The position numbers and the translations under genes were made by a program. Positions 11,247-27,279 of a stretch of DNA of 64,000 nucleotides are shown one piece after another; positions within the stretch are counted from its first letter, which is position 1, and every line of letters starts with the position of its first letter. The notes under the pieces were generated by a model. The model ran no database searches, was not told the origin of the DNA, and saw nothing but the letters and a program-made list of their open reading frames with translations. The stretch is from Escherichia coli. GTDB lineage: Bacteria; Pseudomonadota; Gammaproteobacteria; Enterobacterales; Enterobacteriaceae. Where the stretch lies: assembly GCF_003334765.1 (NCBI RefSeq), contig NZ_QOWT01000002.1; one strand, 5' to 3'.

Positions 11247-11408
11247 TTACGCACCAATGCGCCCTTCCTTCTTAAAGCTTTCCATTACTCGCTGATAAAT
11301 CTCAGAATTAACAGACCGACCATTTTCTTCCGCCACCTTGCGTACCAAATCCAATACTTCTTTAGGCCACCGCAAATTGAACTGTGGCATTTTGCTCATT
11401 CCTTTCAT
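11247..11408 (-). CDS. arc: Arc repressor (ribbon-helix-helix)
   Basis: MKGMSKMPQFNLRWPKEVLDLVRKVAEENGRSVNSEIYQRVMESFKKEGRIGA, near-identical to P22 Arc; longer ORF 11247..11471 is an upstream in-frame extension. Confidence 0.9.
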   Translation of the reverse strand: MKGMSKMPQFNLRWPKEVLDLVRKVAEENGRSVNSEIYQRVMESFKKEGRIGA

Positions 11409-11422
11409 GTTCACCTCACAAT

Positions 11423-11443
11423 ATAGGTCCACGGTGGACCTAT
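11423..11443. promoter_or_regulatory. Mnt operator (ATAGGTCCACGGTGGACCTAT)
   Basis: Perfect palindrome matching recalled P22 Omnt. Confidence 0.75.
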
Positions 11444-11450
11444 TGAGAAT

Positions 11451-11471
11451 ATAGTAGAGTGCTTCTATCAT
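11451..11471. promoter_or_regulatory. Arc operator (ATAGTAGAGTGCTTCTATCAT)
   Basis: Matches recalled P22 arc operator within the ant promoter. Confidence 0.7.
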
Positions 11472-11498
11472 GTCAATACACTAACTTGGAGTGATGGC

Positions 11499-11753
11499 AT
11501 GGCTAGAGATGATCCGCACTTTAACTTCCGTATGCCTTTGGAAGTAAGAGAAAAATTGAAATTAAGAGCCGAGGCTAACGGAAGGTCAATGAACTCTGAG
11601 TTATTACAAATCGTTCAGGATGCACTATCAAAACCATCACCGATTACAGGATATCGCGACGAAGCTGAACGCTTGGCTGATCAGCAGGCTGAGCAGTTCA
11701 AGGCTATAGTGTTTGAGACACTTAAAAAGATTTATGAAAAGGATTTGAAATGA
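11499..11753 (+). CDS. mnt: Mnt repressor (ribbon-helix-helix)
   Basis: MARDDPHFNFRMP.EVREKLK.RAEANGRSMNSELLQIVQDALSKPSP matches P22 Mnt. Confidence 0.9.
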   Translation: MARDDPHFNFRMPLEVREKLKLRAEANGRSMNSELLQIVQDALSKPSPITGYRDEAERLADQQAEQFKAIVFETLKKIYEKDLK

Positions 11754-12085
11754 GATTTCTATCACTGTTCTTGTTAGCAGTTGTCTCTTCTTCCAGTGCT
11801 GAGCTGCGCGAGCTTCAAACGGGTAATGACCTTCTTTACAACATTCAACAAGGTAAAAAGGGTGATGATTTTTCATCGCTTTACATTACTGGATATTTGC
11901 GCGGAGTAACTGACTCATTGATACTAATTGGTTCTCTATGTCCTCCTGATGGCGTTGACATGTATCAATACACCGATATCGTTGAGAAATATCTAAACAA
12001 AAACCCAGAATCAAGAAATGAGAGTGCAGTTATACTAACCGCCCTAGCAGTAGGAAAAACATTTCCGTGCAAAAAGAATCAATAA
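11750..12085 (+). CDS. Small secreted protein (signal peptide, two Cys), unknown function; cargo gene at P22 sieA position
   Basis: MRFLSLFLLAVVSSSSA signal peptide; start overlaps mnt stop (ATGA). Confidence 0.6.
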   Translation: MRFLSLFLLAVVSSSSAELRELQTGNDLLYNIQQGKKGDDFSSLYITGYLRGVTDSLILIGSLCPPDGVDMYQYTDIVEKYLNKNPESRNESAVILTALAVGKTFPCKKNQ

Positions 12086-12100
12086 CAATAAGGGCTTAAA

Positions 12101-12490
12101 ATGAAATTGATTATAGCAATGGCTTTCCTTGTCTTCTCGTTTTCTGTCTCAGCAGAGTGCTGGGTCGTTGGAGATATGCACGGAATAAGCTATTCAGAAC
12201 GAAATAATTTTCAACCGGAAGAAGATGGTTTTAGTGGAACATTCATCATTAAGACAAACGGTGAAGATGCCAGTATCACATATTCTGGGACGGATGCGGG
12301 CGGCATGGCTTACAAAGCATTGTCTAAAAACTCCATCATTGGAATCGGCGCGAATGGCGAAACTCAACGAGTTATCGACTCATGGGTAATACATCCTAAT
12401 GGAACAGTTTTAATGTCGAAAACCATTTCTGGTTATGGGAATATGGATTCAACCAAAGCTTTTGTTGGAAAAGTAAAAAGAAAATGTTAA
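12101..12490 (+). CDS. Small secreted beta-rich protein, unknown function
   Basis: MKLIIAMAFLVFSFSVSA signal peptide; 15 bp after the previous ORF. Confidence 0.6.
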   Translation: MKLIIAMAFLVFSFSVSAECWVVGDMHGISYSERNNFQPEEDGFSGTFIIKTNGEDASITYSGTDAGGMAYKALSKNSIIGIGANGETQRVIDSWVIHPNGTVLMSKTISGYGNMDSTKAFVGKVKRKC

Positions 12491-12514
12491 CGATTGAATC
12501 CAATTCCCCATACG

Positions 12515-14356
12515 TTACTGCTGTGTTGCCTCAGTAGCAAGCAGCGGCCTGATGGCATTTGCAGCGTTACTCAACGCTCTTTCATAGGCTGGCGTTCCAG
12601 CTTTAGTGTTTGCCAGACGTAAGAGAGCATTCCTTGCTGCTTTGGACTCATACAAACGCATCATTGCACCAAAGCCAGCCTCAAGCCCCATTGATACACC
12701 AAGAGTCGCAGTTGCGCCAATCGTCCTTATCCTGTTGGCTTGTGATTGCCCCGTCTGAGTTACTACATTTGCGGTGTCTGACCTTGCTGTTTGCTGTAGA
12801 ACTTCATGAAGAGCATCAAGCTCTTTCATGTGCTTTCCAGAAAAAATAGTGTTGTAAATTTCACCGCCTGACTGAGATTTCAGCTTATTAACTTCAGTGA
12901 TGAACTTGGCTGGAGAGTCACCGGCCTTTTCCGCTATTTTGCTGACGTAAGCTGCACGCATAGCATCTTTCCCTTTATCATCCAGGGCGCTCCATATTCG
13001 TTTCACGTCAGATGGTTTTCTGCTTAATACAACGGTATTTATAAGTTCAGGACTGGCTTCACTGCTTGCCTTGTTGAGCTTGTTAGCAATGTTTTTATTA
13101 AGCACCTTATTATAAACGTTTGCATAATCAGAATTTGCTTTAAGGTATTTTGCTGCGTCTGATGCACCGAGGTTTTTAGCAACTGCGTTACGAAGGTCTT
13201 TTGACATTGCATTCTCTACCATATTGGTAGCTGCTTTTGCCTGGTTGGGGAAGACCATAGCATCTCCCTGAACATTAGATCTAAATGCTGTTCTGTGCTG
13301 ACGCAAGAGATCAAACGTAACATCCAAATCAGTTGCAGGGTTTGCTAATTCTTCACGTAGGTTACGCAAGGATGTAAGCAGGCTTTGATTGGCAGACGTC
13401 CCAAGCCGTTCCTGTCTTGCGATCGCTGTATTCAGAGCATTCATGGTATTTGTGGTATCAACTGCGGCATTACCCATTTTATTGGTGACGTCATTGATAA
13501 CAGCGCCAGCGGCATCCTTCCGCCCCCTTAACGTGGTGGTAAGAGATTTCACCACATCATCAGGGTTGTACTCACCAAAACGGTCAAAATAATTACTTAC
13601 CAGCTTACTACGCGTTGCATATTGCTCCGCTCGCTTTGAGCCTGTCCCGAGCAAAGCCCCCTCGGCATCCTGAGTTAGGCCGCGAGTGAAAGCATTTTTC
13701 GGCGGGATAACATCAGATGTCATTGGTGTCACGCCCATCGATTCTGATGTGGCAATTTTCTTCGCCACTTCTGGCGCAATATCACCTTTTATAGCCGTTA
13801 TTCCACGCCCTATTCCCTTTGCTGCTGCGGAAAGAACACCCTGAGTGGCAAGGTTAACTCCGGCATTTTTAGCTGCATTTTGTGCGAAATCGCCTTTCTG
13901 ATTTGCGGCCTCTGCCAGTGATCCAATAGCCATGCTTCCTGCCGTTCCAACTCCTGGAACTAAATACCCACCAATTGTTTCACCGGCTTGCGCGTAGGGG
14001 TCTGTCGGTCTGTCTACTGGACGATAAACATCATCCAAAACCTTGGGTCCACCAAGCCCCTGACTGATTGCATTAATCAGACTTGCGCCGCCCTGCAATA
14101 CGTCAAATGGTATGTTTACCAGACCACGACCAGCCTGTTCTGCAATTTGCCCTGCACTTTGACCACCAGTGAGCCAATCGCCAGCTTGTTGCATCAATGA
14201 TGGTTCTTCCCGTGTTGGTGCATTATTGGCCTGATTAACTGTTTGTTGCTGAACAGCCTGACCAGCAAAATACTCATCAATGGCGGTGCCAATATCTTCG
14301 GTGCTCGTACCATCAGGAAAGGTAAATGTCTTACCGTTTGCAGTTACTTTCATCAT
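12515..14356 (-). CDS. Ejection (DNA transfer) protein, P22 gp16-like
   Basis: 613 aa, Ala/Gly/Asn/Thr-rich; position and length correspond to P22 gene 16 (synteny-based). Confidence 0.5.
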
Positions 14357-14622
14357 TCCACCGTAAATTGAATGCCTGATTTTGAGGTATATGATCCAAC
14401 CTGATTCCGTGGTTCTCCTGAAGGTGTCGAATCTTGTGCTGGCGCTGCGTCAGTATTCATTGACATATACCGCTTAACGGCACTCCCCAATGATTCACCT
14501 TTTTTAACATCCAACCCCAATATCTGACCGCCATTACGCGATTGTCCAGGGTTGCCATTCGCGCTCATCCACTCGGCTTTAAACTCATTAAACTGCGCGT
14601 TTCGTCGCTCAAGGTTTGCCAT
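14353..14622 (-). pseudogene. Possible C-terminal fragment of the gp20-like ejection protein gene, out of frame with 14565..15482
   Basis: 89 aa ORF overlapping the upstream ORF by 58 nt in another frame; no SD before its ATG. Confidence 0.35.
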
Positions 14623-15482
14623 TGCATCAAGCCATCTTGCGACCGTCTCAGGGTTTCCATGTTTACTGACAGCTTAGGTGCTTCGCTAATCAACTGCTGA
14701 GCCTTTTCCTGCGCTTGCTGCATCTTAAACCCGAACTCTTGCTGATCCAGAGCCAAGCGTTGTGCTGCGATATTGTGCCCAGTCATTGCTGACTGATAGG
14801 AAAGGTTTTGCCCTCTCGCCTGAAGTGCTTCACCAGCCTGATTGCTGCGGATTGTCTCTGCCAGCCTGCCTCGGTCAATCTCACGACCAGCCATCTTGTC
14901 CTGAACAGCAAACGCCTTTTCTGGTCCAAGCGCACCGAGAGACATAGTAGTCAGCATGTGTGATAGCTGCTCTGGATTCTGGATACCTGTCTGAATCATC
15001 CAGTCAGCATTAGCACCAACGCGATTTAACCTGTCCTTGTTGTCAGTAATGAATTTACTGTAGGCTTCCGGTCCCTGAGAAAGAGCGACGTTAGCCCTCA
15101 TGGCTAAATCGCCCATATCGTTGCGTTGCTGATCATTAAGACCGGAAAACGCCTGTTGTGCCTGTGCAACAAACGCTGGATTTTCCTGGGCAAACTTAAA
15201 TAGTCCCGATGGATCACCAGAAGCCCATGCATCAGCGTGAACCTTATTGAACGCACTAATAGCTTTCTGTTGCTGTTCCTGATTGTAAATATCAGCAACT
15301 CCAGCCAGACCACGTAACGCGGTCAGGCCAACGTTATTTGCACCTGAGCGAGCCAGTTCATTGTTTTCGCGGATCAGACCAAGCGTTGCGTTAATGTCGC
15401 TTGCCTTTGGCGCATTCTCATTTTGCGTACCGATGCCAGCCAGAAAACCACCAGAATTAATACCCTGTTGCCACGTAGCCAT
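14565..15482 (-). CDS. Ejection protein, P22 gp20-like (possibly frameshifted near 14600)
   Basis: 305 aa Q/A/N-rich; between gp7-like and gp16-like genes. Confidence 0.45.
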
Positions 15483-15492
15483 TGATTACCCC

Positions 15493-16188
15493 TTAATAAA
15501 GCAGTGAACCAAGCAGACCGATACCAGCACCGATACCAGCACCCCACGGAGTTGATGAACCAATTAATTTCGCAAGTCCAGCCCCAGCAATAGCACCAGA
15601 CGCACCTCCGCCAATAGCAGATTGCATTGCTGATGGTCTGTTGGCATTTGCCGCTGCAAGAGCCGCACTTTGCTGCGAAATCTGACTCATGTTGTTGGCA
15701 TATGTCTGCCCGGCGTTTGCCTGACCTTGCAGTGCGCCAAGACCAATATTTGCCAGATTCTGGTAGTTGTTCATCTGACCAGATAGCCATTGCTGACCAA
15801 GCGTTGGTGCGATTGTTGCTAACTGATTACCGGTTGCAGTGGAACCCAATCCACCTGTTGCTTCCGCTGCCGCCAGACTCTGATAGCGAGCCTGACCAGC
15901 AAGATCTTTGTACTGCTGAGAGTTGTAATACTGGTTAAGTGCCTGACCTTGCCCTTCCAGAGACGATAAGTTCTCGAGGCTGCCGACATACTTATCAGCC
16001 AGAGGAGTAAACGGCTTCAGGTTGTTCATGATGGTGTTGAACTGCTGATTTTGCAGGTCTGCGGCATACTTCTGAGCTTCTGCTGCATACTTTGCGCTTT
16101 TATCAGAACTGCCACCTTTCCCGCCTTTTTCAGGGCAATAAGGTTCCTCGCCGCGCAGTTTTCTGCCCAGCTTAAATGCATATAACAT
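15493..16188 (-). CDS. Ejection protein, P22 gp7-like (C-terminal 231 codons of the 460-aa ORF)
   Basis: From MLYAFKLGRKLRGEEP... the ORF is Q/N/G/A-rich with a Gly-rich hydrophobic C-terminus; length matches P22 gp7 (about 229 aa). Confidence 0.45.
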   Translation of the reverse strand: MLYAFKLGRKLRGEEPYCPEKGGKGGSSDKSAKYAAEAQKYAADLQNQQFNTIMNNLKPFTPLADKYVGSLENLSSLEGQGQALNQYYNSQQYKDLAGQARYQSLAAAEATGGLGSTATGNQLATIAPTLGQQWLSGQMNNYQNLANIGLGALQGQANAGQTYANNMSQISQQSAALAAANANRPSAMQSAIGGGASGAIAGAGLAKLIGSSTPWGAGIGAGIGLLGSLLY

Positions 16189-16875
16189 GGCTAACGCCGA
16201 GATGCCGTATTGCGCATAGCTCATACAATCAATTTCGCCTTCGCAAAGTACAACCGCCCTCACGCCAGCGTCCAGAGCCTGCCATCCGAACAGACAAGGT
16301 TCGCAATCACCTTCTGCCATAATGACTTTCTTCCCGTCCGGGCGCTCAGTGCTGATTCGCTTGACCTGCAACAACTCACCATCGCGTTTGTACGGAATCA
16401 CCAGAGCATCCAGTTCTCGCTCTCCATTCCACACCTTGCCGCTGACAACCTCGTAGCGCTTTACGATTTCTGGCGATATGCCACGCGATTGCAGGTACTC
16501 AAGATGGGATTCTGTTCTGGTAACGTAGCGGGCGATTTTCTTGCGATCAGGTCTGGAGAATTTCTTCTCACGTCTGGCATCGAAATGGTGATCGTCATCC
16601 TTGATACCGAGAAATGCTTTCGCTTCCTGCATAGCCTGATGCAGGTTAATTCCACGACATGCCATCCACAAATCAAGCATGTCACCGCCGTCTCCCTCAG
16701 CGAAATCAGCCCATTTTTTCTTGCCGCTAAGGTTGACCTTAAGGCTGTTTCCCTTGTCACCGTTGACGTTACCGGCAACCCACTCATGCCCCTCTTTCTT
16801 GCCGTTTGGCAACAGGTGCGGAGCCACCCTGTCAACCTGCGCCCAAAGCAGGTCGCTAAGTTCACTTGGCGTCAT
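16189..16875 (-). pseudogene. Truncated toprim-domain DNA primase (N-terminal 229 codons) fused in frame to the gp7-like gene
   Basis: Degenerate zinc-finger-like WADFAEGDGGDMLDLWM then toprim motif VVLCEGEIDCMS; no downstream DxD motif; directly follows O-like gene. Confidence 0.5.
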
Positions 16876-16982
16876 GATTCCCTCAGATTGAGATTTTTAA
16901 ACCAGAAATCGACAAACGAAATACTTAACCAGCCGTGGTTATAACCAGCGACCAGTAGCGATTTGATTTTTGATTTCATGGT

Positions 16983-17843
16983 TCACCTGTCGAAAAACAC
17001 GTAGCCAGTTTTCGATACGGTGATTGCGGATGATGGTTTGGATTGTGGTTGAATGGTTTCTGGCTTTTCGTCGTTCCAGCGCTGACCGTTCAGGTAGCTC
17101 GATGGTAACAACCTGTCGAATCCGAACTGCTTACCATTCCTGCATGCGATGTCTTCTGCCAGCATCGTGGCAAACTCGCTTGCCGTACCCCTGGTAGTTT
17201 TACGCCATTCCCTGAACTGTGTTCTGAATGCCGAAGCTGCGTTTTTCTTCCCGGCTTTCCGCATGCCTGCACACCAGAATATTTCCTCGAATGCCTTGTC
17301 GGTTTCTTCGTGACGGTCAGGTGATTTTTCACACTCCGTCCGAACACTTTCGGACATAGTGTTTTTATTATTTCTTTTTTCTTTTGTAATAGTTTCTTTT
17401 GTGTGTCCCTGTTTTGGTGACAGCGCTGTCACCGTTTTGGTGACACTTTTTGTCACCAATGCGGTGACATTATCACCAGAGTAGTGACACCCTTCGATTT
17501 GCCATTCCTCGATGTTCTTGTTAGGCCCGATTTGCTGGCCTTCGCGAAGGATAACCTTCATCGCGATAAGCTCATTCTTGGCCTTGTTTACCTTCTGTCT
17601 TGGCAGCCTGGTAATTTGAGCTAACTGACTATCAGAGATGCGATCCATCTTTTTACCGTAGCCGTATGTTTTACGGCATATGGCGTGGGCAACCTTGCTC
17701 TGATTTTTCGTTAAATCTGCGCCGATAAGCTCTTCATACAGGGCATTTGCAAGACGGGTATAACCATCTTCAACTTCTGCCACACGACGCTCCACAGGCC
17801 GTTGTGAAGGCCTTAAATGTGTTACGGTTGCAAGATTACTCAT
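16983..17843 (-). CDS. Replication initiator, lambda O-like (P22 gene 18-like)
   Basis: 286 aa; follows cII; iterons and AT-rich stretch lie inside the gene as in lambda ori. Confidence 0.65.
17359..17490. other. Phage replication origin: GGTGACA/TGTCACC iterons plus adjacent AT-rich region inside the O-like gene
   Basis: TTTTGGTGACAGCGCTGTCACCGTTTTGGTGACACTTTTTGTCACCAATGCGGTGACATTATCACC next to TTTTTATTATTTCTTTTTTCTTTTG. Confidence 0.6.
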
Positions 17844-18016
17844 GACCTTTCTCCTTCTGCATCAGCTTCACTTTTTCCAACTCAGCCCGGAATCGACCAG
17901 GCTGCTTGAAGCTGGACAGGAAGCGATCACGTAGTATGTGTTTGTGAATTTTGTCCTGGTAAGGACTGAGTTGTTTTGTCATAATGACTCCTGTGGATTG
18001 ATCCAGTCTTTCTACA

Positions 18017-18295
18017 TCAGGCCTCGAAGAATTCGCCGTTCTTCGGGGCTTTTTCTTTTGTCAGCATTCTGGCTACTTGCTTAGCCAGTTCCGCCAACTC
18101 CTCGTCTTCAACACCCCATTCAAGAACAGCAAGAAGCATTCCCATTTTGGGGATGAAGCTGTCTTTCCATCGCGAAATTTGCGATTCATTAATCCCTAAC
18201 GCGTCGGCAACCTTTCGCTGACCACGTACAGCAATTCGATTCAGGATGTTGCTTGTAATTGCATTCGCTTTCTTGCGAGTACTTGTAAGTTGCAT
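18017..18295 (-). CDS. CII-like transcriptional activator
   Basis: ...[46 protein letters not shown] resembles lambda CII ...[25 protein letters not shown]. Confidence 0.8.
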
Positions 18296-18353
18296 ATGTA
18301 AGTATTTCCTTAACTAATAAGAAGTTATGCGCATCAACTTATGCGCGTTGTAT

Positions 18354-18397
18354 TCCCGCATTTCGGCGGGAATGAGGACCATGACTGTTAAAGAGCG
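18354..18397 (-). promoter_or_regulatory. nutR: boxA CGCTCTTTAACA (18386..18397) and boxB hairpin TCCCGC-CGAAAT-GCGGGA (18354..18371)
   Basis: Read on minus strand just downstream of cro; boxB identical to the nutL copy. Confidence 0.6.
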
Positions 18398-18403
18398 GTG
18401 TTA

Positions 18404-18604
18404 CTATTTGTTTTTCTTGTTGCTTGGGAAAGGACGAACTTCCTCTCCAATCACACTGCCATCAGGCTTTACCGTAACCATAATGTTACGGCCTGCCAGA
18501 ATGGCCTTGCTGATAGCGCACTGGATTACACCAAAGTCACTGGCTGCTTTAGCCTGTCCATGGATTTTGGCGTAATCGGCAAGTGTCATTCGAATCATAT
18601 GCAC
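18404..18604 (-). CDS. cro: Cro repressor
   Basis: ...[59 protein letters not shown] resembles lambda Cro. Confidence 0.85.
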
Positions 18605-18629
18605 TCTCCGTTATTAACCATGAACAAAG

Positions 18630-18693
18630 AATACTACAGGTATTCAAAGCAATCAATACTCAGGGTATTTTTAGTTTAAGTACCTTAGCTATT
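18630..18693. promoter_or_regulatory. OR operators: AATACTACAGGTATT (18630..18644), AATACTCAGGGTATT (18655..18669), variant AGTACCTTAGCTATT (18679..18693)
   Basis: 15-bp palindromes at about 24-25 bp spacing between divergent cro and cI. Confidence 0.6.
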
Positions 18694-18704
18694 AGAATTA
18701 AGCT

Positions 18705-19421
18705 ATGGAAAATAAAAAATCACTGACGACAGAACAGCTCGAAGACGCTAAGCGGCTTAAGGCTTTGTATGAGTCAAAAAAGAAAGAATTGGGAATAACC
18801 CAATACTCAATCGCTGATGAACTGGGTATCACCCAAGGAGCGGTAGGGCATTATCTTAATGGCAGAAACGCGCTAAACGTTGAGGTCGCATCTGGTTTTG
18901 CACGTTTGTTGCAAGTCTCAATTGCTGATTTTAGCCAGTCAATTGCTGCCAAGGTTGCAGAACAGGCAGAAAGCCTTAAGAGCGATGCCAACGTAAGGTA
19001 TGCAGGGGAATACAGAGCAGGAAAGAGGTATCCGGTGTTAAGCAGTATCCAGGCTGGCTCGTGGTGTGAAGCATGCGAACCATACACCATTAAAGACATA
19101 GATGTTTGGCTTGAGTCTGACGCGCATATTCAAGGTAATGCGTTCTGGCTTAAAGTGGAAGGTGATTCAATGACGGCACCGGTTGGGTTAAGCATTCCAG
19201 AGGGAACATTCGTTCTTTTCGATACCGGAAGGGAGGCGATCAACGGCAGCTTGGTCATAGCAAAACTTTCTGACTCTAACGAAGCAACATTCAAGAAGCT
19301 GATAATCGACGGCGGAAATAAATACCTCAAGGGACTTAACCCTGCATGGCCTCTCGTGCCAATCAATGGAAACTGCAAGATTATAGGCGTTGCAATTGAG
19401 ACAAAACTAAGGCTGGTTTGA
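18705..19421 (+). CDS. cI: CI repressor (HTH plus S24 LexA-like autopeptidase domain)
   Basis: 238 aa; N-terminal HTH (QYSIADELGITQGAVGHYLNG), C-terminal ...KVEGDSM...ATFKKL; no SD before ATG, consistent with a leaderless pRM transcript. Confidence 0.85.
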   Translation: MENKKSLTTEQLEDAKRLKALYESKKKELGITQYSIADELGITQGAVGHYLNGRNALNVEVASGFARLLQVSIADFSQSIAAKVAEQAESLKSDANVRYAGEYRAGKRYPVLSSIQAGSWCEACEPYTIKDIDVWLESDAHIQGNAFWLKVEGDSMTAPVGLSIPEGTFVLFDTGREAINGSLVIAKLSDSNEATFKKLIIDGGNKYLKGLNPAWPLVPINGNCKIIGVAIETKLRLV

Positions 19422-19440
19422 TCACGCAAGGGGGGCGCTT

Positions 19441-19809
19441 ATGGTTGGAACCGCTATAGCAAGCTTTTTGGGGATGTTGGCAATCTCAACAATTTACGGC
19501 TTAGCGCATGCTTTTATTGCGAAATCTCTATCAGAAAAAATAAGCCAGGCTTGGGCGCATAGATCAGCTCGTTTCATGATTCTAGTGGTCATAGCAATAC
19601 AAGGGATATCTGCATTTATCCTCTATGGATCAAGCTTATACCTGTTGTATCAAGGAGCGACATTTACGCCTTACACCAGTGATTACGGAACTCTATACGA
19701 TGGTAGTGAAGACATCTCTATGGCTTGGATCGTCTTTGGTTTATCTATGGCCGTGTCTGTTGTAGCAGACATCATTAAGGTAATTCTCGTCTTAACCTTC
19801 GCTGACTAA
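19441..19809 (+). CDS. Small 3-TM membrane protein co-transcribed with cI (rex-locus position); candidate exclusion/abortive-infection factor
   Basis: 122 aa, three hydrophobic helices, strong SD AAGGGGGG 19 bp after cI stop. Confidence 0.6.
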   Translation: MVGTAIASFLGMLAISTIYGLAHAFIAKSLSEKISQAWAHRSARFMILVVIAIQGISAFILYGSSLYLLYQGATFTPYTSDYGTLYDGSEDISMAWIVFGLSMAVSVVADIIKVILVLTFAD

Positions 19810-19895
19810 CCCATAATCCCGGCAGCAATAGCTATCGGGATCCACTTCACATATCCCGCATAAAAAGCACTGAACAAGCAGATACCGAAAAAATA

Positions 19896-19980
19896 AATAT
19901 CCTTTGTATTCATTTGTTTATCATTATTTCATCAAAAATAAATACCTTGGGTATTTACACAATAAAATACCTACAGTATT
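19896..19980. promoter_or_regulatory. OL operators: AATATCCTTTGTATT (19896..19910), AATACCTTGGGTATT (19941..19955), AATACCTACAGTATT (19966..19980); pL region
   Basis: Same AATAC-N5-GTATT palindrome family as OR, upstream of the N-like gene. Confidence 0.55.
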
Positions 19981-20028
19981 CTTTAGCCATCAGCAGGACG
20001 CTGGAAGCCAAACGGAACAGATTGGCAG

Positions 20029-20069
20029 GCTCTTTAACATTGATGGGATTGTCCCGCCGAAATGCGGGA
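20029..20069 (+). promoter_or_regulatory. nutL: boxA GCTCTTTAACA (20029..20039) and boxB hairpin TCCCGC-CGAAAT-GCGGGA (20052..20069)
   Basis: rrn/lambda-like boxA followed 12 nt later by 6-bp stem hairpin identical to nutR boxB. Confidence 0.6.
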
Positions 20070-20176
20070 ACCAAAGAGTAGTTGGCTTTGGGGTGACGTG
20101 AAGTGCAGCTGCACGACGGCAACCGGAAGATAAGCACCCGGCGCGTCACCGCCAAAGCCAATCATCGGAGGTCAAC

Positions 20177-20473
20177 ATGATAATCGTTACTTATCTGGCT
20201 GATGATAACACCAGAAATCGCCGCAGAGCACGCAGACAGGCTCAACGTGAACAGGCAATGCAAGAACAGCGACTTGCGCGAAAAATTGCGCTAAAGCTCT
20301 CTGGTTGCGTCAGAGCAGATAAAGCAGCATCACTCGGAAGCCTTCGCTGCAAGAAGGCAGAAGAAGTCGAGCGTAAACAGAACCGTATTTACTACCGCAA
20401 GCCACGCAGTGAAATGGGTGTGACTTGTGTTGGTCGCCAGAAAATGAAATTAGGCAGCAAACCACTTATTTGA
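20177..20473 (+). CDS. N-like transcription antiterminator (arginine-rich motif)
   Basis: 98 aa; N-terminal ARM DDNTRNRRRARRQAQREQ; strong SD GGAGG; first gene after pL/nutL. Confidence 0.65.
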   Translation: MIIVTYLADDNTRNRRRARRQAQREQAMQEQRLARKIALKLSGCVRADKAASLGSLRCKKAEEVERKQNRIYYRKPRSEMGVTCVGRQKMKLGSKPLI

Positions 20474-20481
20474 GGTGAGAT

Positions 20482-20952
20482 ATGACAAAATCATGGAGCG
20501 TACCTTTTCCTGAATCAGAAACTGAACATGATGGAATGCCTGTTTTCTGGAGATTCCAAGCGACAGTTGAAGAAGATGGAATCAAAATATTCGCACTTCA
20601 ATATATAGCTTTTCATCAGACAGAGCATTATGCATGGTTGGTTCCTGCGCATTGGATTGTTGATTTTAAACCAGCACCAAATCAGTGGTTACAGGAATGG
20701 AAACAAAAGAGAAATAGATATGCAATTAAGAAAGTAGCAAAAAATGCAGAAAGATCTTTTGCATTCCCAACGAAGAAACTTGCCATTGAAAGTTTATTGC
20801 GCCGGAAGAAATACCATTTAATGAGAATAAAACAAGATTTGGCTGTTGTATCAACTCTTGTTGATGGGATGAAAAATATTGATACATCAACACCAGATAT
20901 TGAATATAACTTTGGACACAACCAAGAAACAGAAAATTGGGTATTTTATTAG
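20482..20952 (+). CDS. Hypothetical protein, AT-rich, unknown function
   Basis: 156 aa ORF immediately after the N-like gene; no recognisable motif. Confidence 0.5.
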   Translation: MTKSWSVPFPESETEHDGMPVFWRFQATVEEDGIKIFALQYIAFHQTEHYAWLVPAHWIVDFKPAPNQWLQEWKQKRNRYAIKKVAKNAERSFAFPTKKLAIESLLRRKKYHLMRIKQDLAVVSTLVDGMKNIDTSTPDIEYNFGHNQETENWVFY

Positions 20953-21056
20953 TACGAATAAGCACTGTGTATTCATTCCAACGAGTGAATACACGGAGCA
21001 ATGTCGCTCGTAACTAAACAGGAGCCGACTTGTTCTGATTATTGGAAGTCTTCTTT

Positions 21057-21084
21057 GCCCTCCGATGTGAGGGCTTTTTTATAT
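21057..21084 (+). terminator. Rho-independent terminator (GCCCTC-CGATGTG-GAGGGC + T6)
   Basis: GC stem followed by TTTTTT; candidate tL1 overridden by N. Confidence 0.65.
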
Positions 21085-21164
21085 GCATACCAATAACGCT
21101 TCACGAGAGGTGTTTATTCATGAGCGTAAACGCTGATTAATGAACGCAGTTGATAGGATATAAA

Positions 21165-21677
21165 ATGGCATTTATAAAGATTCTTGAATTAATTTCCCTA
21201 AGTGAGATTAATAATGTTGTCAAATATAACCCTATTTCTGGTGAGTTCACATGGCTAAAATCTTATGGAGCAAGAAAGATAGGTGGAACTGCCGGAACAA
21301 TAACAACAAGCGGCTACTTAAGGATTTTCATTAACGGAAGACACTATGCTGCACATAGACTTGCATGGATTATCACTTTCGGTGTTGAGCCTGAAGGTAT
21401 TATCGACCATATAAATGGCATAAAGACAGATAACAGAATTTGCAATCTGAGGCTTGCAACTTACTCACAGAATTCAATGAATAGTAAAATAAATACCCTC
21501 AACAAATCAGGTTGCAAAGGAGTCACATGGAAGAAGGAAAGTAGAAAGTGGGCTGCCTATGGGAAATTAAACGGGAAGAAAAAACATCTAGGGTACTTTA
21601 ATGAATTAGAAGATGCCAAAAAAGCTTACTGCGACTTTGCCAGAAAGCATCACGGCGAATTCTACAGGAGCAAATAA
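21165..21677 (+). CDS. HNH endonuclease with AP2-like DNA-binding domain
   Basis: HINGIKTDNRICNLRLATYSQN HNH motif; C-terminal GVTWKKESRKWAAYGKLNGKKKHLGYFNELEDAKKAY AP2-like; ORF track starts at TTG 21150. Confidence 0.7.
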   Translation: MAFIKILELISLSEINNVVKYNPISGEFTWLKSYGARKIGGTAGTITTSGYLRIFINGRHYAAHRLAWIITFGVEPEGIIDHINGIKTDNRICNLRLATYSQNSMNSKINTLNKSGCKGVTWKKESRKWAAYGKLNGKKKHLGYFNELEDAKKAYCDFARKHHGEFYRSK

Positions 21678-21811
21678 TGAATGAATATATTTTAGCGGGT
21701 AGCGGCGTCATGTCCGCTTTCTACCCGCACGAATCTGAATTATCACGCCGAGTTAAACAATTAATCAGAGCAGCAAAGAAACAACTGGAGGCGTTATGCG
21801 CAATGAAATAG
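21677..21811 (+). CDS. CIII-like small protein, 44 aa (not in ORF track)
   Basis: MNEYILAGSGVMSAFYPHESELSRRVKQLIRAAKKQLEAL resembles lambda CIII MQYAIAGWPVAGCPSESLLERITRKLRDGWKRL. Confidence 0.45.
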   Translation: MNEYILAGSGVMSAFYPHESELSRRVKQLIRAAKKQLEALCAMK

Positions 21812-21948
21812 CCATTAATCACCAGATGCTTCGTGCTGCACAGAACAAAGCAGTAATAGCCAGATTTATTGGTGATTCCAAAATGTGGCTTGAAGCAAAT
21901 AAAGCGATGAAATCAGCTATCAACCTTCCGTGGTATCGCAGGAAATGA
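21796..21948 (+). CDS. Kil-like small protein, 50 aa (not in ORF track)
   Basis: MRNEIAINHQMLRAAQNKAVIARFIGDSKMW...; directly follows cIII-like ORF; motif recalled from lambdoid Kil, unverified. Confidence 0.35.
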   Translation: MRNEIAINHQMLRAAQNKAVIARFIGDSKMWLEANKAMKSAINLPWYRRK

Positions 21949-22029
21949 GTTTTACAGATAACTGGTCAGACGAAGAATTCATTCGTCAGATGAACAAAAT
22001 GCTCAATCAGCACAAAGAACAGGAGAAAG

Positions 22030-22341
22030 ATGATGATTCTGACTCTGAATGATAAGCGTGAAATATCGCAAATAATCGCAAGTTTTACTGATGAAGATTA
22101 CGAGCGAATCAACAGTGAAGTTGATCGCCTCTGCAAACGTTGCGACCCAATAAGCGAAATGCTTCGCTCATATAAACCAGATGAACACACTAAGGACGCT
22201 ATCGACTGGCTGGAAGATGATGACTGTAACTATCAGGAAAAAGCCGCTGAATGGTTCTGGGATGCAATAACCGAAAGAGTTAAGGCTGAATATGCCTTCG
22301 CAATATTTAAACGCAGACACATTTTTGGAGAAGCTGCATGA
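22030..22341 (+). CDS. Hypothetical acidic protein upstream of recT
   Basis: 103 aa ORF with stop overlapping recT start. Confidence 0.5.
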   Translation: MMILTLNDKREISQIIASFTDEDYERINSEVDRLCKRCDPISEMLRSYKPDEHTKDAIDWLEDDDCNYQEKAAEWFWDAITERVKAEYAFAIFKRRHIFGEAA

Positions 22342-23240
22342 GCAATATCGTTGAATTCGTTAAACAGCAAGAGCAGTTATTCTGCGGAGCATTGACTGAA
22401 CAGACGGTGACATGGGCTAAGGAAAGCCAGTTTGCAATTCAGTATTTCCAGAAAAACGATTACCTGGCTAAAACAGCACTGGCAAATCCAACCAGCGCAC
22501 AGAACGCCATCATCAATGTTGCGGCGATCGGCATCACCTTAAACCCGGCCAGCAAACTGGCTTATCTGGTTCCTCGCGACGGCATGGTGTGCCTTGATAT
22601 CAGTTACATGGGATTACTTCACCTTGCACAGTCGACAGGATCAATTAAGTGGGGGCAATGCAAACTGGTGTACTCAAACGACACCTATGAATCAAACGGC
22701 CTTGATTCAGCACCAACCCACAAATACAACGCATTTGGTAAGCGAGGCTCTATTGTTGGTGGTTATTGTACGGTTAAAACAGCAGATGGTGACTACCTCA
22801 CTGAAGAAATGAGTCTGGCAGAAATTAAAGCTGTGGAAGCAACGAGCAAGGCAAAGAATGGACCGTGGAAGACATTCTGGGAAGAGATGGCGCGTAAAAC
22901 AATAGTTAAACGCGCCAGCAAATACTGGCCTAAAGCCCAGCGACTGGATAATGCCATTCACCTGCTTAACGAAGATGAAGGTATGCATCAGGAACCAGTT
23001 ATGCCGCACAAATCAGAGGAAGATATCCGCGAAGATGAACGGAAACGCCAGCAGGAAATTATGGAAAAAGCACAACTTCTTTGTGATGAAATGGCTCAGG
23101 CAGAAAACATGGATGATTTGAAGCGATATTTTGCAGAAGCATATCGCCTGACATCTGGAATGAAATTGCAGCAGAACGTACAAGCCATTTACATAGAATG
23201 CAAAGCGAAACTGGAGGTTGCCAGTGAGCAAACTGTATGA
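22338..23240 (+). CDS. recT: RecT-family single-strand annealing recombinase
   Basis: ...KNGPWKTFWEEMARKTIVKRASKYWP resembles E. coli RecT ...NNGPWVTHWEEMAKKTAIRRLFKYLP. Confidence 0.8.
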   Translation: MSNIVEFVKQQEQLFCGALTEQTVTWAKESQFAIQYFQKNDYLAKTALANPTSAQNAIINVAAIGITLNPASKLAYLVPRDGMVCLDISYMGLLHLAQSTGSIKWGQCKLVYSNDTYESNGLDSAPTHKYNAFGKRGSIVGGYCTVKTADGDYLTEEMSLAEIKAVEATSKAKNGPWKTFWEEMARKTIVKRASKYWPKAQRLDNAIHLLNEDEGMHQEPVMPHKSEEDIREDERKRQQEIMEKAQLLCDEMAQAENMDDLKRYFAEAYRLTSGMKLQQNVQAIYIECKAKLEVASEQTV

Positions 23241-23706
23241 AATTGCCAATGAATACGCAAAATTGATGGATTCAGATTTAGAACCAGAGATGATTGCTGA
23301 CACAATAGAAGGCATGGAAGGAGAATTTACCGATAAAATAGAGCAACTTCTTTCCGTCATTAAAAATGAATCTGGTTATGCTGAACGCCTCAAGGAAGAG
23401 GCAAAGTCACTGAATGAGCGAGCCGCAGTAATTCAAAATAAGATTGACAGCATCAAATCATATATAGCGTCATCGCTTGAAATGGTTGGCAAGAAAAATA
23501 TTCGAGCAGGTATTCACCAGGTAACAATCCGCAAACCGTCAGAAACTGTAGAAATCATCGACTCAAGCGCCCTTCCTCCTGAATACCTTGAGTTTGAAAC
23601 GACAATTAAAGCCGACAAACTGGCAATCAAGCACCAACTAAAAGCAGGAATAAATATTCCCGGTGCTCAACTCAAGGTTGGGAAACCTTCACTTCTTATC
23701 AAATAA
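23218..23706 (+). CDS. Phage protein, coiled-coil N-terminus (Gp157/Mu-Gam-like?), unknown function
   Basis: 162 aa ORF overlapping recT end. Confidence 0.45.
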   Translation: MPVSKLYEIANEYAKLMDSDLEPEMIADTIEGMEGEFTDKIEQLLSVIKNESGYAERLKEEAKSLNERAAVIQNKIDSIKSYIASSLEMVGKKNIRAGIHQVTIRKPSETVEIIDSSALPPEYLEFETTIKADKLAIKHQLKAGINIPGAQLKVGKPSLLIK

Positions 23707-23717
23707 CGGTATCGCCT

Positions 23718-24032
23718 ATGAAAAAGACTCCATGGGAGAAATGGGAAGTCGATTTCTTGCGCGAAGTAGCGGCGACAATGCCAGTTGAAGTTATCGCTGA
23801 AAAACTGGAAAGGACTGAAAAAGCAGTAATGGCAAAAGCAACAAGGATTGGCGCTGACATTGTTAGCCGACTTCGTGGAAGACGATGGACAAGAGCCGAA
23901 GTATCACTTTTCGGTAAGTTCTCCGCAGAAGAAATAGCAATTGCAACCTGCCGATCAATTTATTCAGTAAGAGCTATGCGATACAAGCTAAAAAAACTCG
24001 ATGAAGAAAGAGCAGGCATACGAATAAATTAA
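23718..24032 (+). CDS. Hypothetical phage protein
   Basis: 104 aa ORF in early-left operon. Confidence 0.45.
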
Positions 24033-24212
24033 CAAAGAGGAATTAATCATGAGAGGGCTTGCATACAATCCCGGCATTCTTCCGGCAGAAATGATTATTC
24101 GCCAACGCGTAAAGCCAATGCCATCGAGAGAGGAATTGCTTAAGAGAAATAGTTTCGGTTCTGTTAATGACAACAAATATCTGAATGCGATGTTGCGTAA
24201 AGGAGGCAAGCA

Positions 24213-24512
24213 GTGAGTGTATGTCTTATTGATAAACGTCGACGTGGGCAACAAATACCATCTGTTGGAATGCCGAATCACACATGGTTTTGCGTACTTG
24301 ATATCGATGGTATGGATGCGTTGGTTGACACTCGTCATTACTGCGATACCGCAACAGCTACTCCGGCGAAAGCAAAGAAAATGGCTGCTCTGATAGAAAA
24401 CTGGACTCCACCTGATGGTTGGTGCAATGGGAATGATCGAGATTGGCACGAAAAAATGAAGGGCTATATCTGCGATTTTTTACGTAAATGCAACGGCTTC
24501 AGGGTGATGTGA
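24213..24512 (+). CDS. Hypothetical phage protein (Cys/His/Trp-rich)
   Basis: 99 aa ORF. Confidence 0.4.
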
Positions 24513-24513
24513 T

Positions 24514-24921
24514 ATGAACAAGATTGACTATCAGGCACTGCGTGAAGCGGCAGAGAAAGCCGGTGAAGATAAGTGGCAGGCTAAAAAAATAAATGGTGAT
24601 TTTTTCGTTATTCGTCACGGTAGTTATACAAGACAGCATGGCTACACATCGTATCAACCCATTGCGGAGATTGATTGTAAGCAAGTCCGGGATTTTGTTG
24701 CCAAGGCTAATCCGGCTACCGTGCTGGAATTACTGGATGAACTGGAAGCAGCAAAAAAGCGCATTGCAGAACTGAAAGCGCGGGAAATACTGCTCCCGGA
24801 ACGTAGCAGCATGCTTCATCGAACAGATTTTCACGATGATTACCAAACGGTAATGGCATACAAAGTTTCTGAAGTCATCGATGCAATCCGCGCTACTGGC
24901 ATTCGCATCAAAGGAGAGTGA
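24514..24921 (+). CDS. Hypothetical phage protein (Ead/Ea22-like region)
   Basis: 135 aa ORF, 1-bp gap from previous ORF. Confidence 0.45.
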   Translation: MNKIDYQALREAAEKAGEDKWQAKKINGDFFVIRHGSYTRQHGYTSYQPIAEIDCKQVRDFVAKANPATVLELLDELEAAKKRIAELKAREILLPERSSMLHRTDFHDDYQTVMAYKVSEVIDAIRATGIRIKGE

Positions 24922-24922
24922 T

Positions 24923-25552
24923 ATGAGCGCTATAACCAAAGAACGTATCAAATTATTCATTAAAAATCCGCTTGATAACGGACTTACTCGTGGCGAACAA
25001 ATGGAACTGGCACGAATTGCACTGGCATCACTGGAACGCGAACAGATTCGCCACGAGCATGCCAAATGGTCTGACTCCACATTTGGCTGCGTTGGCCCCA
25101 TTGGTCCACTGAAACACCTCTCAAAAGAGGCACTGGAAGCCGCAGCCGAACCTGACGATCTCAGCGAGTGGGCTGATATGCAGTTCCTGTTGTGGGATGC
25201 ACAGCGCCGTGCTGGTATCAGTGATGCTGAAATTACCGCTGCTATGGAAAATAAATTGAAGATCAACATGGAGCGCCAGTGGCCTGAGCCAAAAGATGGT
25301 GAGCCTCGCTTGCACATTAAAGAACCCGGCAACTCTCCGGTAACTCCGGATGGTTGGATAAGCTGTAGTGATCGAATGCCGGAAGACACCAAAATGTTAC
25401 TGGCATTTAGTCAAGGTAAAATCGTGGCCGCATATTGGAACTGGGTTATAAATCCAATTGATTACAAAAAATATAGAGCTTTCACGTATTTATCAGGATA
25501 TATCTTGGATGACGTAACTCACTGGATGCCGCTACCAGAGCCTCCACTTTGA
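24923..25552 (+). CDS. Hypothetical phage protein with DUF551-like C-terminus
   Basis: SD AAGGAGAG before ATG 24923; C-terminal ...HWMPLPEPP typical of lambdoid early-region proteins. Confidence 0.5.
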   Translation: MSAITKERIKLFIKNPLDNGLTRGEQMELARIALASLEREQIRHEHAKWSDSTFGCVGPIGPLKHLSKEALEAAAEPDDLSEWADMQFLLWDAQRRAGISDAEITAAMENKLKINMERQWPEPKDGEPRLHIKEPGNSPVTPDGWISCSDRMPEDTKMLLAFSQGKIVAAYWNWVINPIDYKKYRAFTYLSGYILDDVTHWMPLPEPPL

Positions 25553-25647
25553 AAGCGAAGCTTATACATATCTTTTACATCAGCAATCTATTGTTAATCT
25601 CCAATCAATGTTACGTTGTCATCTCACTCATGCTTTGGAGGTAGTGA

Positions 25648-25828
25648 TATGTCTTGTCCAAAATGCGGTTCTGGAAATATTGCAAAAGAAAAAACAATGC
25701 GTGGATGGTCTGGTGATTATGTGTGCTGCGATTGCGGATACAACGACTCTAAAGACGCATTTGGAGAGCGTGGTAAAAACGAGTTTGTTAAAATTAATAA
25801 AGAACGCGAAGGCAACGAAAAAAGCTAA
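25648..25828 (+). CDS. Small zinc-ribbon protein (CPKCG...CCDCG)
   Basis: SD GGAGG before ATG 25648; two CxxC pairs. Confidence 0.5.
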
Positions 25829-25891
25829 TTTATTTATTCATATATGAAAACAATGTAACCAATATTCGAATTGAAGAACTGAAAGAACACC

Positions 25892-25916
25892 AAGCCGCCT
25901 GATGGCGGTTTTTTAT
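25892..25916 (+). terminator. Rho-independent terminator (AGCCGCC-TGAT-GGCGGTT + T-run)
   Basis: GC-rich hairpin followed by TTTTTTAT. Confidence 0.7.
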
Positions 25917-25924
25917 TACCTGAT

Positions 25925-25940
25925 TTGCAGGTTCGATTCC
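25925..25940. repeat. Internal partial argW copy TTGCAGGTTCGATTCC (T-arm segment)
   Basis: 16-nt identity with 5601..5616 of argW, located upstream of torI. Confidence 0.6.
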
Positions 25941-25959
25941 CTATTCGGAGATAGCACTC

Positions 25960-26160
25960 ATGCAACACGAACTACAGCCTGATTCACTGGTTGATTTGAA
26001 ATTCATCATGGCCGATACTGGCTTCGGTAAAACCTTCATCTATGACCGGATTAAGTCCGGCGACCTGCCAAAAGCCAAAGTTATCCACGGGCGAGCAAGA
26101 TGGTTATATCGTGACCATTGTGAATTCAAAAATAAGCTCTTAAGCCGCGCCAATGGGTAA
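25960..26160 (+). CDS. torI: TorI: recombination directionality factor (excisionase) and TorR inhibitor
   Basis: 66 aa MQHELQPDSLVDLKFIMADTGFGKTFIYDRIKSGDLPKAKVIHGRARWLYRDHCEFKNKLLSRANG; recognised. Confidence 0.85.
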   Translation: MQHELQPDSLVDLKFIMADTGFGKTFIYDRIKSGDLPKAKVIHGRARWLYRDHCEFKNKLLSRANG

Positions 26161-26232
26161 AATAGCGGGTAAAATATTTCTCACATCTAAAAAACACCAT
26201 TCCAATCAATCCCCTGCCGCTTCAAGTAGATG

Positions 26233-26248
26233 TCTGCAGGGGACACCA
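26233..26248. repeat. attR core: 16-nt direct repeat CTGCAGGGGACACCAT
   Basis: Identical to argW 3' end at 5616..5631. Confidence 0.7.
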
Positions 26249-26343
26249 TCCTTGTGTTTATCCCTAAAACCACATAAAAACCGTAAATTAAATTCGAACT
26301 AGCAGGCCGAATAAGGCACACCAGGAACTCGTGGTTTTATTCA

Positions 26344-27279
26344 TTATGAAGTGGTTTTTACCTGTTCTCTTAGCCAGATAATAAACGCTTCAATTTTTGG
26401 CCACTGCCTGCCCGGTAATGTGGTGATGTAATAATGCTGATGGCATTTCACCGTCATATCGCCAAACGGCGCGACGAGCTCACCACTGGCAAGCCTTTTT
26501 TGTACCAGGCGTTTTCTTCCCATCGCCACCCCAATATGATTCATCGCGGCAATAACAGCTAAATCAGAACGATCAAAGCCAATTCCAGAAGATGTCGGCA
26601 AATTAACCGCATAATGTTGCGCCCAACTATGCCATTCATCCGTACCGGAGTCGTTGCTCCATGCCTGTCTGTCATGGAGCAACGTACAGTGACACAGGTT
26701 AATTACCGTGTTGGTTAAAGCATGTCTTTGAGCGTATTCCGGGCTACATACTGGCAGGATTTCTTCATCCATCAGAAAGTGATGAGTGAGTTGCGCTGAC
26801 GGCGCATCATCAAAGTAGATCGCCAAATCGATTCCGGCACGTTGCAGATTGACGTTGTCATTACCAGTGAGCACGGTGAGCGAAATAGACGGATACCGGC
26901 GTGTAAAGTCACCTAATGCGGGCACCAACCAGCATTGGGCGATAGAGGGCCGGGAATACAGAGTTAACGTTCCCGATAACTCCTGATTTTTGATATCAAG
27001 AATTTCCTGGTTCAGGGTATCCAGCGACGATTTTAGCGCCCAATAAACACGTTTCCCCTCGTGCGTTAATTCCACTTTGCGATGGGAACGAACAAACAAC
27101 TGAATGCCCAATTCTTCTTCCAGCTGATTGATACGGTGACTTACCGCACTGGGGCTCAGCGACAATTCCTCTGCCGCCAGGGCGAAGGACTGATGCCTGG
27201 CAGCCACTTCAAAAGTATGCATTTTTGATAATTGCCAGCCGTTAAGCAGCCGATTTCTTATTTCACGAAGGGGTTCCAT
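26344..27279 (-). CDS. dsdC: LysR-family activator of D-serine utilisation DsdC
   Basis: Recognised; ORF 26344..27285, start probably MEPLREIRN. Confidence 0.9.
   Translation of the reverse strand: MEPLREIRNRLLNGWQLSKMHTFEVAARHQSFALAAEELSLSPSAVSHRINQLEEELGIQLFVRSHRKVELTHEGKRVYWALKSSLDTLNQEILDIKNQELSGTLTLYSRPSIAQCWLVPALGDFTRRYPSISLTVLTGNDNVNLQRAGIDLAIYFDDAPSAQLTHHFLMDEEILPVCSPEYAQRHALTNTVINLCHCTLLHDRQAWSNDSGTDEWHSWAQHYAVNLPTSSGIGFDRSDLAVIAAMNHIGVAMGRKRLVQKRLASGELVAPFGDMTVKCHQHYYITTLPGRQWPKIEAFIIWLREQVKTTS

Follow-up and report, generated by a model that had tools for sequence, protein, structure and literature searches.

The locus analysed here raises the question of why two different pieces of a single tRNA gene, argW, lie on either side of the excisionase gene torI in a prophage of Escherichia coli. 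The stretch of DNA examined as a whole, 64 kb long and hereafter called the window, carries one prophage of the HK620/Sf6/KplE1 type, with an IntS integrase and a TorI excisionase, inserted in argW. The downstream piece is the attR copy of the known 16-nt attachment core and, together with the attL copy, the normal product of IntS recombination; as an ordinary, previously described attachment-site core, it adds nothing new. As comparison of many leaders shows, the upstream piece is a genuine part of the excisionase leader, derived from the tRNA and conserved; it adds a minor novelty to a well-known module. We consider it best explained, with a probability of roughly 0.55, as an old scar of the left half-site of attB that would now act as a cis element in the torI leader, possibly as an operator for IntS. 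The following features bear on this reading:

5556..5630, plus strand: argW, tRNA-Arg(CCT), found by ARAGORN and from the sequence; intact, its 3' end rebuilt by phage DNA (attL)
5601..5616, plus strand: T-arm 16-mer within argW, read from the sequence
5616..5631, plus strand: attL copy of the 16-nt att core CTGCAGGGGACACCAT, exact, the same 16-mer as the KplE1 core in PMC2951348
25892..25911, plus strand: hairpin and T run of an intrinsic terminator that ends the upstream eaG-type operon, directly ahead of the torI leader
25925..25940, plus strand: upstream (inner) copy of the argW T-arm 16-mer, TTGCAGGTTCGATTCC, in the torI leader, exact
25931..25941, plus strand: conserved core GTTCGATTCCC (family consensus GTTCGATTYCC, tRNA positions 53-62), from the leader alignment
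25947..25950, plus strand: Shine-Dalgarno (SD) sequence GGAG of torI, 6 nt past the 16-mer and 5 nt past the conserved 11-mer
25960..26160, plus strand: torI, encoding the excisionase or recombination directionality factor (RDF), 66 aa, 100% identical to HK620 HkaC and Sf6 gp18
26228..26233, plus strand: putative IntS core-type half-site C (GATGTC), abutting the overlap, deduced from the inverted repeat across the 7-bp TGCAGGG
26234..26249, plus strand: attR copy of the 16-nt att core CTGCAGGGGACACCAT, exact, with host DNA (dsdC side) directly after

Both 16-mers are real and derived from argW, as an earlier note on this DNA had proposed. Each is an exact match with one other copy in the window, inside argW, which is the sole tRNA gene that ARAGORN detected there and is identical to the argW of empty sites up to the core. 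TTGCAGGTTCGATTCC occurs at 5601..5616 and 25925..25940, with no third copy when up to two mismatches were allowed, and CTGCAGGGGACACCAT at 5616..5631 and 26234..26249 and nowhere else; shuffled sequence is expected to yield 0.08 and 0.01 copies, respectively, which rules out a chance origin for either. Within the tRNA gene, the T-arm 16-mer spans the end of the variable loop, the 5' strand of the T-stem, the T-loop, and the first 2 nt of the 3' strand of the T-stem. The single base C5616 is common to both 16-mers, so that they are contiguous in the intact tRNA with a one-base overlap, also as previously described. The coordinates given in that description were right for the upstream copy, whereas the downstream copy, placed at 26233..26248, actually lies one base further on. 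The notion that torI sits inside a copy of the tRNA 3' end is formally correct, given that the 293 bp between the two prophage copies (25941..26233) hold the SD sequence, torI, and the P arm of attR.

The upstream 16-mer, which ends about 20 nt before the torI start codon, is phage-borne and older than the integration in this strain. The complete HK620 and Sf6 genomes have the same leader (terminator, TTGCAGGTTCGATTCC, CTATTCGGAG, and ATG) immediately before hkaC and gene 18, respectively, some 300 bp away from the attP core, and KplE1 of K-12 carries the 16-mer too. Because the copy is already present in free phages and in K-12 KplE1, it is not the product of nested integration in this strain. 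We found no description of it as tRNA-derived in PMC2951348, PMC3509656, or the Kapi1 preprint, though an earlier mention elsewhere in the KplE1/HK620/Sf6 literature is possible.

Conservation was assessed with excisionase homologues drawn from annotated phages, from one genome per species, and from viral contigs; retrieval via the protein gave 54 distinct leaders, in which up to three mismatches were allowed in the motif. A first scan of viral contigs with the TorI alignment had returned only loci with 100% identical TorI, and thus little diversity. In its carriers, the motif reads (A/G)GTTCGATT(C/T)CC, mostly followed by C, and stands 3-6 nt before the SD sequence of the excisionase gene. 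In the 54 leaders, which come from phages of Escherichia, Salmonella, Citrobacter, Leclercia, Pantoea, and Erwinia, positions G0, T1, T2, C3, G4, A5, T6, T7, and C9 carry 1.7-2.0 bits, Y8 0.96 bits, and C10 1.39 bits, compared with 0.3-1.5 bits in the flanks. Carriers include HK620-type phages, the Erwinia phages Midgardsormr38 and phiEt88, the Salmonella phages Emek and g341c, and prophages of Citrobacter, Leclercia, Pantoea, Phytobacter, and others (loci L092-L094, L100, L101, and L105 among them). Midgardsormr38 has two tandem copies 16 nt apart, as does locus L151, and phiEt88 keeps the motif though its excisionase is just 36-39% identical. The motif is also kept in at least five differing upstream contexts, among them an intrinsic terminator with TTGCCTGG, the remains of the 5' end of a P22-type xis gene, and unrelated sequence. 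As judged from these alignments, the 11-nt core GTTCGATTYCC is evidently under strong purifying selection in argW-targeting IntS/RDF modules of several enterobacterial genera. The earlier note had named absence of the inner repeat from homologous attR regions as something that would refute it; the repeat is conserved in the homologous modules.

The position at which the tRNA likeness of the upstream copy stops is informative with respect to the IntS crossover. Among 66 distinct attP and attR sites, the six bases to the left of TGCAGGG read G-(A/G)-T-G-T-(C/A/T), with the G, T, and G invariant and the positions of GRTGTC 82-100% conserved, while GACACC to the right of TGCAGGG is the inverted repeat of GGTGTC. 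This arrangement points to two core-type half-sites around a 7-bp overlap, and, given the usual layout of such sites, top-strand exchange would take place between C5616 and T5617. Neither the 7-bp overlap nor this placement of the exchange was found stated for IntS in the two KplE1 papers or the Kapi1 preprint named above. The left half-site of the tRNA, GATTCC, is the exact 3' end of the upstream copy, whose identity to the tRNA stops at C5616, the left edge of the att core. The upstream copy would then represent the B side of attB, ending at the putative cleavage point, while the core provides the overlap and the B' side. On the 5' side of the motif, residual similarity to the variable loop and anticodon stem exceeds that of shuffled sequences in two independent lineages (HK620, p~0.003; Pantoea BAV3049, p~0.007); on the 3' side, no tRNA similarity was detected in any lineage (shuffle p 0.11-0.80). 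This asymmetry agrees with descent from a longer tRNA fragment that was broken at the exchange point, probably in a secondary-site event mediated by IntS. With a layout of GRTGTC or GATTCC, overlap TGCAGGG, and GACACC, the stretch from the T-arm copy through torI to the core could be viewed as an attB occupied by a minimal cassette of leader, torI, P arm, and C site, and thus as the scar of such an ancient event.

We favor, at the odds given at the outset, a scar that would have been retained as a sequence-specific cis element beside the torI ribosome-binding site. The motif is unlinked to RDF or arm-site specificity, being found alongside int-side repeats of three types (GTTCG, GTWAC, and CMGAA) and alongside GGGTAAA as well as GGGCATA arms. 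The most economical option, which we nevertheless regard as tentative, would be a site for the core-binding/catalytic domain of IntS, because IntS is the only protein of the module whose DNA specificity is constant across all lineages with the motif. IntS bound there would let the integrase damp or insulate expression of the excisionase. Still more doubtful is the fully specified version, in which the 11-mer mimics the attB left half-site, the integrase sits on the ribosome-binding region of the excisionase gene, and the 3' end of the element records the top-strand cut by IntS. A host factor, a translational effect, or hitch-hiking may be involved instead of IntS binding.

Several observations weigh against this interpretation. 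The motif is an accessory element, dispensable for excision in vitro and absent from about half of the lineages (Chronis, EhrS49, L095-L099, L102-L104, L106, and the short leaders that we call class B). GATTCC matches the half-site consensus GRTGTC at only four of six positions (five of six for the variant GATTTC), lone core-type half-sites are usually weak, the spacing between motif and SD sequence varies from 3 to 6 nt, and no second half-site at a fixed spacing was conserved among the leaders compared. In addition, GTTC is more rigid in the motif than are the equivalent positions of real C sites, so that an IntS half-site alone fails to explain the conservation. The origin scenario requires several unobserved steps, and its exact pathway cannot be reconstructed. 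Finally, all carriers target the same invariant argW T-arm, and shared descent plus some other constraint would look alike. Every related module found targets argW, and the invariance of enteric argW T-arms precludes a test of covariation between motif and target; the next closest integrases (≤38% identity) have a different architecture, and the tRNAs with TTCGAAT loops belong to phage tRNA arrays, where no IntS or TorI homologue was found. A pseudo-core of two half-sites, GATTCC-N7-GAGATA, was considered and dropped, its spacing being 5, 7, or 8 nt depending on the lineage.

The KplE1/HK620 module is the best-studied one whose integrase and excisionase genes flank attP and are separately transcribed, and how excisionase synthesis is repressed in the lysogen is only partly understood. 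The motif GTTCGATTCC beside the torI ribosome-binding site offers a concrete, mutable target for probing the control of excisionase expression, and the leader 11-mer, identical to the tRNA sequence abutting the crossover, predicts the position of the IntS cut. If the fully specified version is correct, argW-targeting phages would possess a feedback from integrase to excisionase that complements the repression of intS by TorI and IntS, and the sharp 3' end of the element would be left over from an ancient recombination at a secondary site through which the torI-attP-intS module arose. If the element is without effect, it would be an evolutionary scar in a well-known module.

The two ends of the prophage have the organization expected of this module, including the sites with which the upstream copy has to be compared:

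5638..5725, plus strand: five TorI-type pentamers on attL (GTTCG 5638, GTCCG 5658, GTTCG 5701, GTTCG 5711, GATCG 5721)
5747..5791, no strand assigned: IntS arm-type (P') sites (GGGTAAA 5747, GGATAAA 5758, inverted TTTACCC 5770 and 5785)
5792..6949, plus strand: intS, the integrase gene, 99% identical to the CUS-3/HK633/Kapi1 integrases
26137..26271, plus strand: stretch equal to the 135-bp attR excision substrate, placed by mapping the primers of PMC3509656 onto the window
26155..26173, plus strand: two direct IntS arm-type sites GGGTAAA (26155 and 26167) in the P arm of attR, overlapping the torI stop codon

The attL pentamers agree with the published I1-I5 layout, and the P' sites, which share a TAAA motif, overlap the intS promoter (PintS, TTGACA at 5726) (PMC2951348). 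The duplicated KplE1 core in argW is given as the 16-nt CTGCAGGGGACACCAT in the same paper, and the Kapi1 preprint describes an identical site, which the free phage has between xis and int, for Kapi1, Sf6, HK620, and KplE1. This is consistent with the window, where intS adjoins attL and torI adjoins attR, an order that puts attP of the free phage between these two genes. Homology to free HK620 and Sf6 ends at 26249. The comparisons with K-12 and with empty argW sites that the earlier note had called for gave a torI-dsdC junction in K-12 (locus L107) identical to that of the window and, for genomes with an empty site (e.g., locus L108), a match from 26234 onward. The sole element present is the 20.6-kb prophage between the cores, and the window holds no third copy of the core. 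At 5631..26233, this prophage is about half the length of HK620 or Sf6 (38-39 kb) and probably a deleted, defective derivative.

Against this background, we give hardly any credence to tandem or nested integration, as had been suggested for the two repeats, by two elements that used different argW crossovers (T-loop and acceptor stem) successively in this strain. In its favor, the two pieces abut exactly in the tRNA, and the T-loop is reportedly a known sublocation of crossover for tRNA-targeting integrases. However, the window has a single core pair and no extra copy of either 16-mer with up to two mismatches, the upstream copy stands next to attP in free HK620 and Sf6, and the sequence past the T-arm copy is not the remainder of the tRNA, so that the gene is not restored. 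We also built the junctions expected from a crossover at the T-arm copy and searched for them in 5,426 complete E. coli genomes: the junction joining the argW 5' part and T-arm copy, ending in GGTTCGATTCC, to the torI leader beginning with CTATTCGGAG was found in none of them, and the hits inspected for the reciprocal junction were only split pieces of the normal arrangement. The inner repeat thus did not emerge as a prophage boundary in these genomes. The suggestion that the upstream 16-mer is an arm-type site of IntS fared no better. The 16-mer has no likeness to TAAA or to GGGTAAA/GGATAAA, and the true arm sites are those at 26155, 26167, 5747, 5758, 5770, and 5785; it also lies outside, and about 200 bp to the left of, the 135-bp attR (26137..26271) that is sufficient for excision in vitro (PMC3509656), in an assay that covers excision only. 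Moreover, the arm repeats switch between GGGTAAA and GGGCATA with the motif unaffected. A neutral relic, that is, a functionless tRNA fragment acquired once and persisting beside the ribosome-binding site as the module spreads en bloc, seems unlikely. Such a relic would agree with the motif being missing from about half of the lineages and unnecessary for excision in vitro, and with the HK620-type sequences, where it varies as much as the sequence around it (2 singleton variants in 49 distinct sequences), a level of polymorphism too low to show constraint. Evidence against it is the retention of 1.7-2.0 bits at nine of the 11 motif positions while RDF proteins diverge down to 36-50% identity and flanks fall to 0.3-1.5 bits, the decay of the remainder of the putative tRNA fragment, and a tandem duplicate kept in two diverged lineages.

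The remaining readings assign the upstream copy another function. TorI binds GTTCG, GATCG, and GTCCG (PMC2951348), and the copy contains a GTTCG pentamer at 25931..25935, so TorI might bind its own leader and regulate itself. The similarity of CAGGTTCG to I3/I4 would support this idea, as would the tandem duplication in Midgardsormr38 and L151, which fits cooperative binding by an RDF, and the mutation of the motif to GCCAGATTCCC in L256, where the int-side repeats are of the GTTAC type. Among the attP P' arms in which repeats at the I3-I5 positions were classed (L001-L008, L102, L230, L248, L256, L279, L283, and L299), three classes were found: TorI-like GTTCG, GTAAC/GTTAC (phiEt88, L248, L256), and CCAGAA/CCGGAA (L279, L283, L299). 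The motif is intact with all three and altered in L256 only: phiEt88 keeps it despite its GTAAC/GTTAC repeats, as do many F[TS]DRYFYK-type modules with CCAGAA/CCGGAA-type repeats. Given also that the invariant part reaches GATTYCC, far past the pentamer, and that only one site is present, whereas TorI binds clustered sites cooperatively (PMC3509656), we think TorI autoregulation improbable. An RNA-level element, in which the T-loop-like sequence limits translation by pairing with the SD sequence (UUCC:GGAG) or early codons, or serves an RNA-binding factor as a mimic of a tRNA T-arm, has similarly poor prospects. The fixed orientation and proximity to the SD sequence, a possible two-stem hairpin (GGUU...AACC and UUCC...GGAG) in several lineages, and the fit of GUUCGAUUC to the T-loop consensus speak for it. 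The RNAalifold consensus, though, is just -0.99 kcal/mol with no compensatory pairs (invariant sequence yields no covariation signal either way), six leaders with the motif have z-scores of -0.13 to +0.60 relative to shuffles, and no T-arm hairpin is possible without the 3' strand of the T-stem, which is missing. No Rfam family came near its gathering threshold, no tRNA match appeared even at E-values up to 10, and ARAGORN found argW only. A full-length antisense match to Rfam STnc130 (25883..26010, minus strand) scored 24 bits against a gathering threshold of 55 and was judged spurious because most of its alignment covers A/T runs and a terminator hairpin; the literature searched on STnc130 yielded nothing relevant. 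A cII-dependent pI promoter, an integration promoter with a cII site, is annotated at this position in GenBank: the HK620 record marks the equivalent of 25915..25953 as 'promoter, phage integration' with a cII site at 25916..25928, and the Sf6 record reads 'pI; possible integrase expression promoter'. We consider this very unlikely for the window, given that no sigma-70-like site was found on either strand in 25500..26400 and that the TTGC repeats are spaced by N5 rather than N6. The first repeat is TTAC in the window and in K-12, the second is TTCC or TTCA in other lineages, and neither is present in Midgardsormr38, phiEt88, or Emek. Such a promoter would drive the excisionase gene, opposite to the logic of pI, and a separate promoter for intS has been mapped on attL (PMC2951348).

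Compared with known systems, the module matches those of KplE1 (CPS-53), HK620, Sf6, and Kapi1 in having the same core at both ends, intS with TorI pentamers and arm sites by attL, torI by attR, a TorI protein that is 100% identical and an IntS that is ~99% identical; the downstream copy shows no difference, and the upstream T-arm copy is present in all of these phages. As is general for phages that duplicate a tRNA 3' segment in attP, the core here copies the tRNA from the crossover onward and restores the gene. In contrast to that rule, a second tRNA piece is present that derives from the part directly 5' of the crossover and has no restoring role; the excisionase gene and P arm lie between it and the core. 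With regard to lambda-type core half-sites and secondary att sites, the putative GATGTC-TGCAGGG-GACACC arrangement is alike, and the upstream copy corresponds to the attB left half-site ending at the putative cut; unlike secondary att sites, it lacks a second half-site at fixed spacing and no recombination was seen at it in the genomes searched, and the IntS cut itself is deduced from sequence. The cross-regulation of RDF and integrase in this module provides a further parallel, since sites for recombination proteins double as operators (PMC2951348), and the role proposed here for the T-arm copy would be the mirror image on torI, whereas repression by TorI and IntS bound at att sites has been demonstrated for intS (PintS) only. 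The pI/cII annotation and a 'bsq2 boundary sequence' in the HK620 and Sf6 GenBank records cover the same bases, with mosaic breakpoints just upstream at 25855 and 25905-25910; the promoter and cII features, however, are unconserved and unsupported by the consensus scan, and the conserved part is the tRNA-like 11-mer.

Among the E. coli genomes, 3,404 of 5,426 match part of 25780..26330, many of them only the eaG-type segment or an empty argW site. Homology classes in this query start at 25855 (Sf6-type) or 25905-25910 (K-12-type), and mosaic breakpoints thus cluster 15-70 nt upstream of the T-arm copy. Class B leaders, which have a terminator T-run and GCC(T/C)GGAG, were found in L102, L237, L239, L241, L246, L248, L268, and L285-L292; they correspond to the common leader minus ~25 nt that hold the T-arm motif, with short GG/CCGG repeats at the bounds, consistent with a deletion. 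L102 and L248 share a near-identical excisionase recognition region (YTAKYFYDQIK) and differ in the class of their repeats, which hints at hybrids formed by core exchange. Locus L092 (JAEWEJ010000341.1), labelled 'MAG: Actinomycetes bacterium', has an enterobacterial-type torI-attR module with the argW core and is likely a mis-binned or contaminating contig. A small annotated open reading frame (hkaB, L001 1874..2014; Sf6 gene 17, L002 1799..1939) overlaps the end of the excisionase gene and crosses the attP core, so that integration swaps its 3' end for host DNA; it is doubtful as a real gene. The annotated excisionase reading frames of Emek and g341c (L006 2435..2698 and L007 2435..2698) begin at a GTG that lies some 60 nt upstream of where it should. 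What precedes the T-arm motif in these two phages (ATGGAATCACACAGCCTCACACTCGATGAGGCCTGTGCATTTC...) resembles the N-terminus of P22 Xis and looks like the leftover 5' part of a P22-type xis gene. K-12 has a related remnant upstream of torI (L107 520..570), which suggests that the IntS/TorI module replaced a P22-type xis-int module, with the left breakpoint just before the motif.

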